Notes under the pieces: model-generated
Database searches by the model: none
What the model saw: only the letters and a program-made list of their open reading frames with translations
What the model was told of the DNA's origin: nothing
Translations under genes and position numbers: made by a program
NCBI GenBank assembly: GCA_964016885.1
Contig: OZ024762.1
Span: 27,342,001 to 27,406,000, forward strand
Reading direction: 5' to 3'
Origin: Eledone cirrhosa
Taxonomy: Eukaryota
DNA: 64,000 nt
Shown: positions 21,050 to 24,000 of the stretch, one piece after another
Numbering within the stretch: position 1 is the first letter of the stretch
How the letters are laid out: every line of letters starts with the position of its first letter

Positions 21050-24000
21050 CTTACGATGGACACATGTGCTGAGCTCGCTCGGTAAGTTTCGTTTAAATTT
21101 ATCTGGAAATTGTAAACTGTAAACTTTCATTTTCGTACCATTTTGTAGAGGGGCCGCCAGGTCAAATTTTGATCTGGTCAGTCTCTCAAAATATTCTACA
21201 CCTTTAGGCGAAATAGTGTTGTAAACATTTTATCTTTCGAAAAATTTAGAAAAATTTAGAAAAATCCTATTTTGAGAAAAATGGCTGAAGCATCTTCACC
21301 AACAATCAAAGAAAGAAAAGGGAAGTCATACTCACAGCTTCCCCCTGCCACTGTCACAGCAGCAGATGCCAAAGGCAGAGGTCAGCCAGAGGAAGAATTT
21401 TCTTCACCTGTTGACCGACAACTTGACGTAGCCACAACTATACAAGAAACTGAAAACAACAACAACAACGACAACAACAGCAACAATAAAGACAACAAAA
21501 ACAACAACAACACAAACGTCACATATGTAGGAAACACTTCCTTTCGTAAAGAAAGGGAATTTCACACAACAAAAAATGAAAATAACAGCCCACAACAGAC
21601 ACCAAAAAATACAGAAAATGAAAAAATTGAAAACGCATCCAACAATACCAATGAAAAGGAAAAAAATGTCAACACAAACACCAAAGAAAATACAAACTAC
21701 AGTGACAACAACAGCAAAATTTATTTTGCTGATACCGTAAAAAAAAACGGAAATATTTCAACTTTTGGATTTAACCAACGCGAAACAAAAGTTGGAAGAT
21801 GCTAAACAATATGTGACTTTTGGACCCAATAGGTCATTTAGCATAAATTCACCACAAGAACTAAGGAGAGAAAATGCCCTGAACACGGTGGTTTTCAGGA
21901 CAATCTCAAATGCATCAAAAAAACCAGCTCAACTATCTCAGAGTGAGATTGAGCTAGTATTAAGGAACCACATGGATAACATTGCTATTAGTGGGGGACT
22001 GGAATGGTATCCTAGATGCACGCTGGGATTACGTAGGGGCCTGTCCCGATAGAGAGGGGTGCAATAGCCCTGGCCCGATAGAGAGGGGTGCAATAGCCTC
22101 AAAGGGTTAATCGGTCGATTTGACCTGGCCGATAGATATCGACTAGATTTTCCGACTGCGCCAACCTGGACTTGGGCAAATCGTAGCGGATCATCTAGGT
22201 CGTACCTAGATAGGTTCTTAGTTAGAATTAAGGATAAGGACTTTTTAAGTTGTCCAAAAATGCGCATGGTTGGCTATTCAGACCACAAGTTAGTTACCTG
22301 CATGGTCAACCTTGACAGAACTCATACACAGGGACCCGGTTACTGGAAGCTCAACTTGTCCTTACCGGCAAGTAAGGCTAACAGGAACCGGATTAGCACT
22401 TTAGTTAAGGAGCGGTTGACGGGCGCCATCGTCAACAGCAGGTAGTGGGGATCTCTCAAAAGAGAGATTAGAGTAGTCTCTATAGAATTTAGTAAGGAGT
22501 TAGCCTCTAATAGAAACAGGAAGGAAAGGAAGTTGGTAGATAGTGTAGTAGAGGCAATTAGAAGCGGCGACGTGGCCAGAGTGCTAGCGTCGAGAACGGC
22601 CCTGGGCCAGTTCTTCGACGCGAAACACGAAGGCTGCATCGTCCGAAGCAAAATACGTGCTCTGGGAAACGAGGGGACCAAAGCTGTTAGCTGGGCCCGG
22701 GTGACAGAAGCCAAAAGAGGGCGCAGATCCACTATCCGGTCTTTGCGAGACCAGGATGGACGGGTGATCCTTGAACCTAAGCAGATGTGCGAGGCTTTTC
22801 AAAAGCACTTTGCCGGATTGTTCGGAAGGGGCGGGGGGCCGGTTGGGGATGTGGACTTCGGTCCATACCTCGACGGCCTGTCGCGTCTCTCGGACAATGA
22901 GGCGAAGTCCTGCGAGGAGCCGATTTCAGCCGCTGAGATAGAGGACATGCTGAGCCAATGCGGCAAACGAAAATCCCCGGGTCTCGATGGTCTTCCATAC
23001 GAACTATATCTAGCTATGCCGGACTTGTTCCCCGATCTCCTCGAGGCGGTCTACTGCAACTGGCAACGGAATGGGAGAATTCCCTGTGCTGTGACCAAGG
23101 GCGTAGTCCACGCTAGTGAGGAAGGACGAGAACAAGGGGGACGATATAAATAATTTCAGGCCCATAACTCTGCTAAATACAGAGTTACAGATTTTGGCCA
23201 AGGTGCTAGCAAAGAGGTTGGCGCTTGTCGTGGGCAACCTGGTGGGAGATGCGCAGACATGTGCTATCCCTCCAGGTCCATCCACGACAACCTCCACCTC
23301 ATGCGATACATCATAGAGAGGGTTGGGAACGAACCCGGCTTTGATGGGGCCCTGATCAACTTGGATCAATCTAAGGCATTCGATAGGGTCGACCATGGTT
23401 ACCTGGATGCGGTGCTAGCAGCGGCAGGCTTCGGACCCGTTTTCAGGGGCTGGATCAATGCCATGCACAGCAGCCGCATCTGCTCTAGGGTCAAGGTGAA
23501 CGGCTACCTCTCGGAGCCGTTCTAGGGTCAAGGTGAACGGCTACCTCTCGGAGCCGTTCGAAATCGCGCGGTCCATCCGACAGGGGTGCCCTCTCTCCTC
23601 CCTTCTGTATGTAATGACTCTAGAGCCACTGTTGCGGAAGTTGGAGTTGTTGCAGGGCATCCCGTTGGAACTGGGATTGCGGAAAGCGGTGTCAGCCTAC
23701 GCCGATGACGTAACAGTGATGGTGTCGACGGCCTCGGAAATCGGGGCGATCGGCACCTTACTGGAGGAGTACGAAAGGTTTACAGGGGCTAAGCTGAACC
23801 GGGACAAATCGATCGGTCTGCAACTCGGCACGTGGAGGGGCAGATCGATGCCCTCCAGTGGCGTCGTCGGGCGCTGGACGGAGGGCCCGGTGAAGCTGCT
23901 CGTGGTCTGGTTCGGACCAGACCTCCAGGTGGAGAAGAACTGGGGTGAGGTAACGAACAGGGTGTTTGCACTGACCCAGAAGTGGGCCGAGTGCAAAATG

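Follow-up and report, generated by a model that had tools for sequence, protein, structure and literature searches.

LINE copies at the locus

The window, that is, the whole 64,000-nt stretch of Eledone cirrhosa DNA analysed here, contains many microsatellites and seven pieces of a single LINE family, arranged as two arrays and one solitary copy. Array A-B-C lies on the + strand (17740-29852) and array X-D-E on the - strand (46500-41726). Decay is evident in all seven, which carry stops, frameshifts and internal deletions. They are:

17740..21049, + strand: copy A, 5'-truncated; begins past a degenerate TATC run and ends in AATAAA + (TATC)n
21050..25310, + strand: copy B, with a full head and the ORF1 ATG at 21281; internal deletions, stops and frameshifts
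25311..29852, + strand: copy C, with a full head and an ORF1 carrying a CCHC knuckle; endonuclease part deleted
44200..46500, - strand: copy X, 5'-truncated; its tail abuts head D
41823..44199, - strand: copy D, B-type in its head and ORF1 start and C-like at its 3' end; its tail abuts head E
41726..41822, - strand: head stub E, exon 1 and intron (both putative) only, with unrelated DNA beyond
58245..60391, - strand: copy F, 5'-truncated and solitary; RT and zf-RVT

The ORF2 pieces of the window contain RVT_1 and zf-RVT domains, with endonuclease motifs visible in the translations of A and B, and full-length relatives (P0006, P0011) combine Exo_endo_phos, RVT_1 and zf-RVT. ORF1 is separate and bears a CCHC knuckle, there are no LTRs, and three copies in the window are 5'-truncated. 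An ORF2 with APE, RT and zf-RVT together with a CCHC ORF1 therefore identifies a non-LTR element of the L1/Tx1 group. A quick RT tree, built without named Tx1 or L1 references, placed the family in a supported clade of 25 rows, separate from the other L1/Tx1-like sequences. The closest named RT protein is from Argonauta hians (62%), and the closest named ORF1 proteins are from Octopus sinensis and A. hians. Identity as a Penelope-like element, with a GIY-YIG nuclease and pseudo-LTRs, was ruled out by the APE-type ORF2; the GIY-YIG match in the window belongs to a different element.

The family is abundant, as ~18,000-20,000 contigs in each of three sequencing runs match a 3.7-kb query (17760-21460). 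The viral contigs searched yielded no relative, word-indexed searches with the window ORF1 pieces gave no match, and Rfam gave none at 40900-44600. The window tails consist of AATAAA and (TATC)n without poly(A), TATC-type repeats end 6/6 tails, and each of the three truncated 5' ends falls within or close to a TATC/TA-rich run; from these sequences, the insertion target appears to be (TATC)n. All four heads in the window follow an upstream tail, compared with 0/3 truncated starts (p=0.03). The 3' end of copy D is 97.5% identical to that of C, and its head is B-type. Such a mosaic suggests that subfamilies have recombined or that template switching has occurred between them.

Putative introns in the element heads

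Each of the four heads contains a GTAAG donor followed by a YAG acceptor, and this arrangement is a real feature of tandem L1/Tx1-group heads:

21082..21148, + strand: putative intron of head B, 67 nt; GTAAGT…TTTTGTAG; donor ~31 nt from the element 5' end
25356..25424, + strand: putative intron of head C, 69 nt; GTAAGC…CTAAT…TTTTGTAG; diverged subfamily
44102..44168, - strand: putative intron of head D, 67 nt
41726..41792, - strand: putative intron of head E, 67 nt; ends in CAG, and LINE homology stops at the AG

The original prediction described these segments as length-conserved introns in the 5'UTR, and its coordinates, lengths (67, 69, 67 and 67 nt) and GTAAG/TTTTGYAG motifs were confirmed for all four heads. 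Likewise, the donor was indeed found near the 5' end of each head, at a measured distance of 28-45 nt. Searching both strands of the window for GTAAG.{45,70}TTTTNYAG returned exactly these four among 80 GTAAG sites. A looser donor-acceptor pair occurred in 0.4-2.6% of dinucleotide shuffles of each 5'UTR, and GTAAG of any kind in 7-19% of shuffled leaders. All four heads show the features of U2-type introns, namely GT…AG ends, an extended donor, a pyrimidine tract and YAG, and position -3 of the acceptor swaps C and T (CAG/TAG) among them. Branch-point candidates are CTAAT in C and, in B, D and E, a weak TTCA(T/A) ~20 nt ahead of the AG.

Comparison of GT/AG with the neighbouring bases, suggested earlier as a check, showed the ends to be more conserved: 10/12 columns are invariant in the first and last six positions vs 21/57 in the interior (Fisher p=0.004), although the ends were chosen for their splice-site look and few independent lineages are compared. 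B, D and E form one subfamily, 81-87% identical over the segment; thus the window holds about two independent lineages rather than four, and C against the rest is the sole deep comparison. The claim that the interior of C has diverged while signals and length persist was accurate for the divergence, the signals and the 69 nt, but the interior is still weakly homologous to the others (56-64%, p 0.02-0.05), about like exon 2 (57%). The length conservation is therefore partly plain descent. Further, the window heads share a TAAATTT, 13-19 nt into the segment, that varies no more than the splice ends do; this fits a DNA motif equally well.

Exon 1 of B, D and E carries a short upstream ORF of 8-9 codons (~21056-21085 on the + strand; 44194-44165 and 41818-41789 on the - strand). 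Its TAA stop occupies donor positions +2 to +4, the same register as the ORF1 stop in the ORF1-stop donor described below. A 3-nt deletion in E leaves the frame of this upstream ORF intact, and C is without such an ATG.

Head E does not lead into ORF1, as it resembles B and D only up to the AG, with the following 60 nt no more alike than shuffled sequence. The 470 nt beyond this AG match nothing in the window or in the sister-clade record G001 (see below) and end in a (TTTTA)n run. The break at the AG was considered as proof of an RNA ending at the splice site and was rejected, as in B and D a long predicted hairpin has its foot at this very base.

Further splice signals in the window family

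The earlier account was correct about the signals in the four heads and overlooked the end of head E at AG as well as signals at the ORF1 stop and before ORF2:

18223..18259, + strand: ORF1/ORF2 spacer of copy A, 37 nt; donor GTGAGT containing the ORF1 stop, pyrimidine tract, acceptor TTTTCAG
26907..26912, + strand: ORF1 stop in copy C; donor GTAAGT with a pyrimidine tract behind; acceptor region lost to an internal deletion

Copy A is the sole copy in the window with an intact ORF1/ORF2 spacer, and its ORF2 ATG, at 18267, lies 7 nt past the spacer acceptor. With the ORF1 frame at the spacer set by a C-terminal motif common to A and C, excision of the 37 nt brings ORF1 in frame with ORF2, which has a 1-in-3 probability by chance. 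An intron of 37 nt is below the usual size in animals. The spacer acceptor could instead pair with the head donor, yielding an ORF2 messenger. None of the 150 matches listed, out of 2139 ORF1 profile matches, also matched an endonuclease query as an ORF1-ORF2 fusion would, and most of them were simple ORF calls on DNA. Several full ORF1 relatives (clusters P0239, P0282 and P0190) lie on contigs, genomic or RNA-derived, of only 2.2-3.6 kb, the size expected of a hypothetical ORF1-only RNA. A conserved 3'UTR acceptor in the window family was rejected, as none was found by eye in six tails.

Splice signals in a sister clade

Related elements occur in G001, a record filed as a bacterial genome in which ~17 contigs (C3-C19; L128-L158) are animal-like and are host contamination. 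Their arrays hold up to 11 mostly intact LINE units of 6.4-6.9 kb each, between flanks of 30-39% GC with TA and CA repeats. In ORF2, these elements are ~42% identical to the closest full relative that the window family has. A quick RT tree without named references places them in the sister group (SH-aLRT 99). The set comprised 31 stretches over the arrays, with 67 tail anchors, 57 of which were followed by a complete head; the other 10 were array ends, contig ends or truncated units. Units within an array are close kin, and the counts below represent about ten subfamilies and not independent events.

One GTAAG donor is present in 54/54 complete heads of the main family, in leaders seemingly unrelated in sequence to those of the window. 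The C13 family lacks it in 3/3 heads and lacks the ORF1-stop donor as well; thus, the splice programme is dispensable in the clade. Heads of L148, from this family, have a strong acceptor 95 nt past the upstream AATAAA and no head donor, the nearest donor being in the 3'UTR of the upstream unit. Long heads of the main family have a U-rich tract and a YAG acceptor 175-199 nt from the donor in 15/15 cases, and in an alignment of seven long-head representatives both splice ends are invariant, vs 18% of all columns. The 39 short heads divide into 19 with a TAG acceptor a little way ahead of ORF1 and 20 with TGG in its place. A canonical acceptor in front of ORF1 is thus missing from 20/54 heads, among them those of the commonest intact subfamily. 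The acceptor site of short heads also forms a hairpin stem with the start codon, and a structural role may account for its AG. AGs are scarce between the donor and ORF1 in short heads, with 3-5 seen vs 8-11 expected (6/6 representatives). The length conservation originally proposed therefore holds within the window family (67-69 nt) and not among its relatives, where the segment spans 175-199 nt or ~220-265 nt or is without a clear acceptor. The donor looks like the most constrained part, with acceptor and length varying between lineages.

Two further donors recur in the main family. One lies at the ORF1 stop in 64/64 junctions, and the other follows the ORF2 stop in 65/65 ends (62 at 14 nt and three at ~40 nt). 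In the 3'UTR, a pyrimidine-YAG acceptor matches the latter donor in 64/65 cases, both ends being kept. This donor varies as GTAAGT/GTGAGT and its acceptor as CAG/TAG; the variation tracks the splice consensus and thereby lends comparative support to the intron reading. The 3.5-kb ORF2 is without such a donor in 9/10 main-family representatives, and synonymous shuffles of ORF2 give 2-3 donors (p 0.03-0.08 each in six with none). Both the ORF1-stop and the ORF2-stop donors are <50 nt from the stop codon, and a splice junction that near a stop codon does not trigger nonsense-mediated decay.

Array-first elements in G001 start ~30-35 nt before the donor, behind unique DNA, which matches exon 1 in the window. 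The donor thus seems to be located where an internal promoter would lie. The notion that heads require an upstream tail was rejected, since five array-first heads follow other DNA. Four arrays (C5 40625, C9 20466, C17 14789 and C19 93454) end 11-18 nt past AATAAA without poly(A); the short stretch at the array end is found again at all internal junctions, and C17 also has it at the array 5' end. Mixed subfamilies and truncated units were also seen inside the arrays.

The control consisted of L1/Tx1-like loci that are more distantly related and have a long ORF2 (60 of 86 fetched). Their leaders contained a donor in 7/30 cases in sense and 7/30 in antisense, and donors stood at 4/58 ORF1/ORF2 junctions and after 5/58 ORF2 stops. 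The lack of enrichment in these loci indicates that the donor pattern is special to the clade of the window family and G001.

Predicted RNA structure

The donor of head B is predicted to be paired in a local hairpin (0.96), a value that 0/60 shuffles reach, and it is also predicted to be fully paired in four long-head subfamilies. Donor pairing does not exceed that of shuffles in heads C, D and E or in one long-head and five short-head representatives; masking of the donor by structure was therefore rejected as a general rule, being above shuffles in only 5/14 heads. Heads in L096, L099, L106 and L110 have the donor within a 14-bp inverted repeat, whose loop length differs by subfamily. A second structure adjoins the acceptor:

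21148..21187, + strand: predicted long hairpin starting at the G of the B acceptor AG; equivalent in D at 44102-44063

Folding of this region gave z=-5.95 in D and, over a 150-nt region, z=-1.64 in B.

A probable retained leader intron and its alternatives

Retention of a leader intron is unusual for this class of elements, yet it has precedents. Retroposition normally erases introns in one round, and an efficiently spliced intron is lost in one round unless spliced RNA is excluded from transposition or its copies die. A lineage that keeps sense-strand splice signals must therefore either keep its spliced and unspliced RNAs apart or lose all copies made from the spliced form. Here, such signals are kept across subfamilies 20-27% apart in DNA and in a sister clade at ~42% protein identity. 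We consider it somewhat probable (about 0.55), judging from sequence comparison, that the GTAAG…YAG segments are a true spliceosomal intron, retained since surviving copies would come from unspliced RNA and intron-less ones would be dead ends. This intron would perhaps belong to a wider, three-donor splice programme of one LINE clade.

Transcription would start at the head, from an internal promoter overlapping exon 1 and the intron. U1 snRNP would then bind the cap-proximal donor, partly masked by RNA structure in some subfamilies, with partial splicing as the outcome. Spliced RNA would serve as mRNA; ORF1 would be expressed through the near acceptor and ORF2 possibly through the one 7 nt ahead of its ATG. 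Unspliced RNA would be the template for new copies. Since reverse transcription starts at the 3' end, a leader intron cannot be sensed at priming; target-primed reverse transcription could not tell the RNA forms apart, and rare intron-less full-length copies would arise but not spread. Partial splicing with dead-end spliced copies, and an internal promoter overlapping the intron, would be the simplest account. Both mechanisms offered in the original prediction, an unspliced template and an intron overlapping the promoter with dead-end spliced copies, have already been published for human L1 (SpIREs, PMC5860796), and a 5'UTR intron that overlaps the promoter for Penelope (PMC8557442).

The 54 G001 heads include no copy precisely lacking the intron. 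The facts that 0/54 heads have lost the donor and that 64/65 3'UTR segments are intact, in units that are not independent, count against frequent splicing with cis-preference, which predicts losses. Contigs from four runs of one study were compared with 17760-21460, and among 15 of 234 joints listed there was none at the head junction 21081-21149, where exon 1 is short and the adjacent repeat was skipped. The same 15 included none that linked the head donor with 18260 or spanned 18223-18259.

More tentatively, the clade may run a retrovirus-like splicing scheme in which unspliced RNA is the genome and the head, ORF1-stop and ORF2-stop donors provide separate ORF1 and ORF2 mRNAs. In the window, the head donor would be joined to the pre-ORF2 acceptor, or the 37-nt spacer would be excised to give an in-frame ORF1-ORF2 fusion. 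In G001, ORF2 would be removed to the shared 3'UTR acceptor, leaving an ORF1-only mRNA.

The main rival to a retained intron, which we regard as rather unlikely, is that the donor is a landing site for U1 snRNP and not part of an excised intron. Bound U1 would protect the long transcript from early cleavage and termination, or damp the poly(A) signal of the upstream copy so that arrays read through, with splicing rare and the acceptor incidental. This would suit the 20/54 G001 heads that have a donor without a canonical acceptor, the absence of precise intron loss among the joints listed (15 of 234) and the 54 G001 heads, and the short distance from the upstream AATAAA to the donor behind it (55-85 nt in the window, 56-135 nt in G001). 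U1 is also described as inhibiting early termination in the Ty1/Copia element EVD (PMC5580714). A lone U1 site, however, would need neither the YAG kept at 67-69 nt with C/T exchange at -3 in 4/4 window heads nor the strong acceptor in 15/15 long heads of G001.

It is improbable that the motifs are DNA promoter elements or arms of RNA hairpins that only resemble splice sites. The location suits an internal Pol II promoter, TAAATTT is invariant 13-19 nt into the segment, the acceptor of B and D sits at a hairpin base, and the human L1 donor is reported within a RUNX3 site (PMC5860796). Such mimicry would not, however, explain why this donor consensus turns up again both at the ORF1 stop and past the ORF2 stop, far from a start site, on the sense strand and varying as GTRAGT. 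Least probable, and already weakened, is chance with common descent from one ancestral AT-rich leader that held GTAAG and YAG: it would fit the roughly two lineages in the window, the 7-19% of shuffled leaders with any GTAAG and the GTAA that a stop codon after G yields by itself at the ORF1 end, but not the pair probability of 0.4-2.6% per leader, the donor in sister-clade leaders of seemingly unrelated sequence or the absence of the pattern from distant L1/Tx1 loci.

Comparison with known elements

Introns in LINE transcripts are known from L1, Tad and TART antisense RNA (PMC1636488). Human L1, of the same LINE group, likewise has a conserved donor near the 5' end, and its spliced copies are described as dead ends that lose promoter sequence, the authors suggesting structural masking of the donor (PMC5860796). 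Its splicing is reported as rare and harmful, with ~2% of full-length copies spliced, whereas no spliced copy occurs among the 54 G001 heads; L1 also has several shifting acceptors hundreds of nucleotides away, unlike the compact 67-69 nt unit and the donors at ORF ends found here (PMC5860796). In TART, introns of similar size are conserved across divergent UTRs, but on the antisense transcript (PMC1636488).

A 5'UTR intron is described for Penelope and for Chlamys-3 (PMC8557442, PMC3846280). That of Penelope is short (75 bp), lies over the internal promoter and is kept after transposition, and Penelope also forms tandem tail-head junctions. Overlap of the window intron with a promoter is proposed here by analogy. 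Penelope-like elements differ in having a GIY-YIG nuclease, one ORF and pseudo-LTRs, whereas the window element has an APE, two ORFs and an L1-type RT (PMC8557442, PMC3846280). In the Ty1/Copia element EVD of Arabidopsis, splicing parts mRNA from unspliced genomic RNA, as predicted here, and a donor lies close to where the structural gene ends; EVD, however, is an LTR element that packages unspliced RNA in particles, and the evidence is experimental there and predictive here (PMC5580714).

The Tx1 families Kibi (TC)n, Koshi (TTC)n and crocodilian (TTCC)n/(TTTC)n share an ORF2 with APE, RT and zinc finger, a CCHC ORF1 and insertion into short tandem repeats, a likeness drawn without a tree; the apparent target here is (TATC)n, and the description of those families mentions no introns (PMC4494074). 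Zepp/ZeppL L1 elements also form self-targeted tandem arrays, but Zepp arrays are mostly 3' fragments (PMC8226300). Recently active L1-Tx1 families have been reported in Octopus vulgaris, in a paper whose main text does not contain the word 'intron' (PMC13282606), and the text seen of another paper (PMC9977147) added nothing on LINE introns. No report of splice signals in cephalopod L1/Tx1 elements was found in full-text searches of main texts, drawn largely from papers outside subscription journals and Repbase.

The family offers a compact test case for how LINEs set their ORF1:ORF2 ratio and for why retroelements such as Penelope retain leader introns. In addition, a 67-nt gap would provide a precise marker for counting dead-end copies in octopod genomes.

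Other features of the window

The separate Penelope-like element lies at 34300-37200 on the + strand and encodes an RT and a GIY-YIG nuclease (ORF piece 35261-36514). Pieces flanking it are repeated elsewhere in the window, and a donor-like site, AAG|GTAACT, is found near 36980 within it. Finally, a perfect 555-nt overlapping duplication and a 912-nt duplication (99% identical, 55 kb apart) involve 4342-5379, 5783-6692 and 60918-62339; these are either recent duplications or an assembly artefact.
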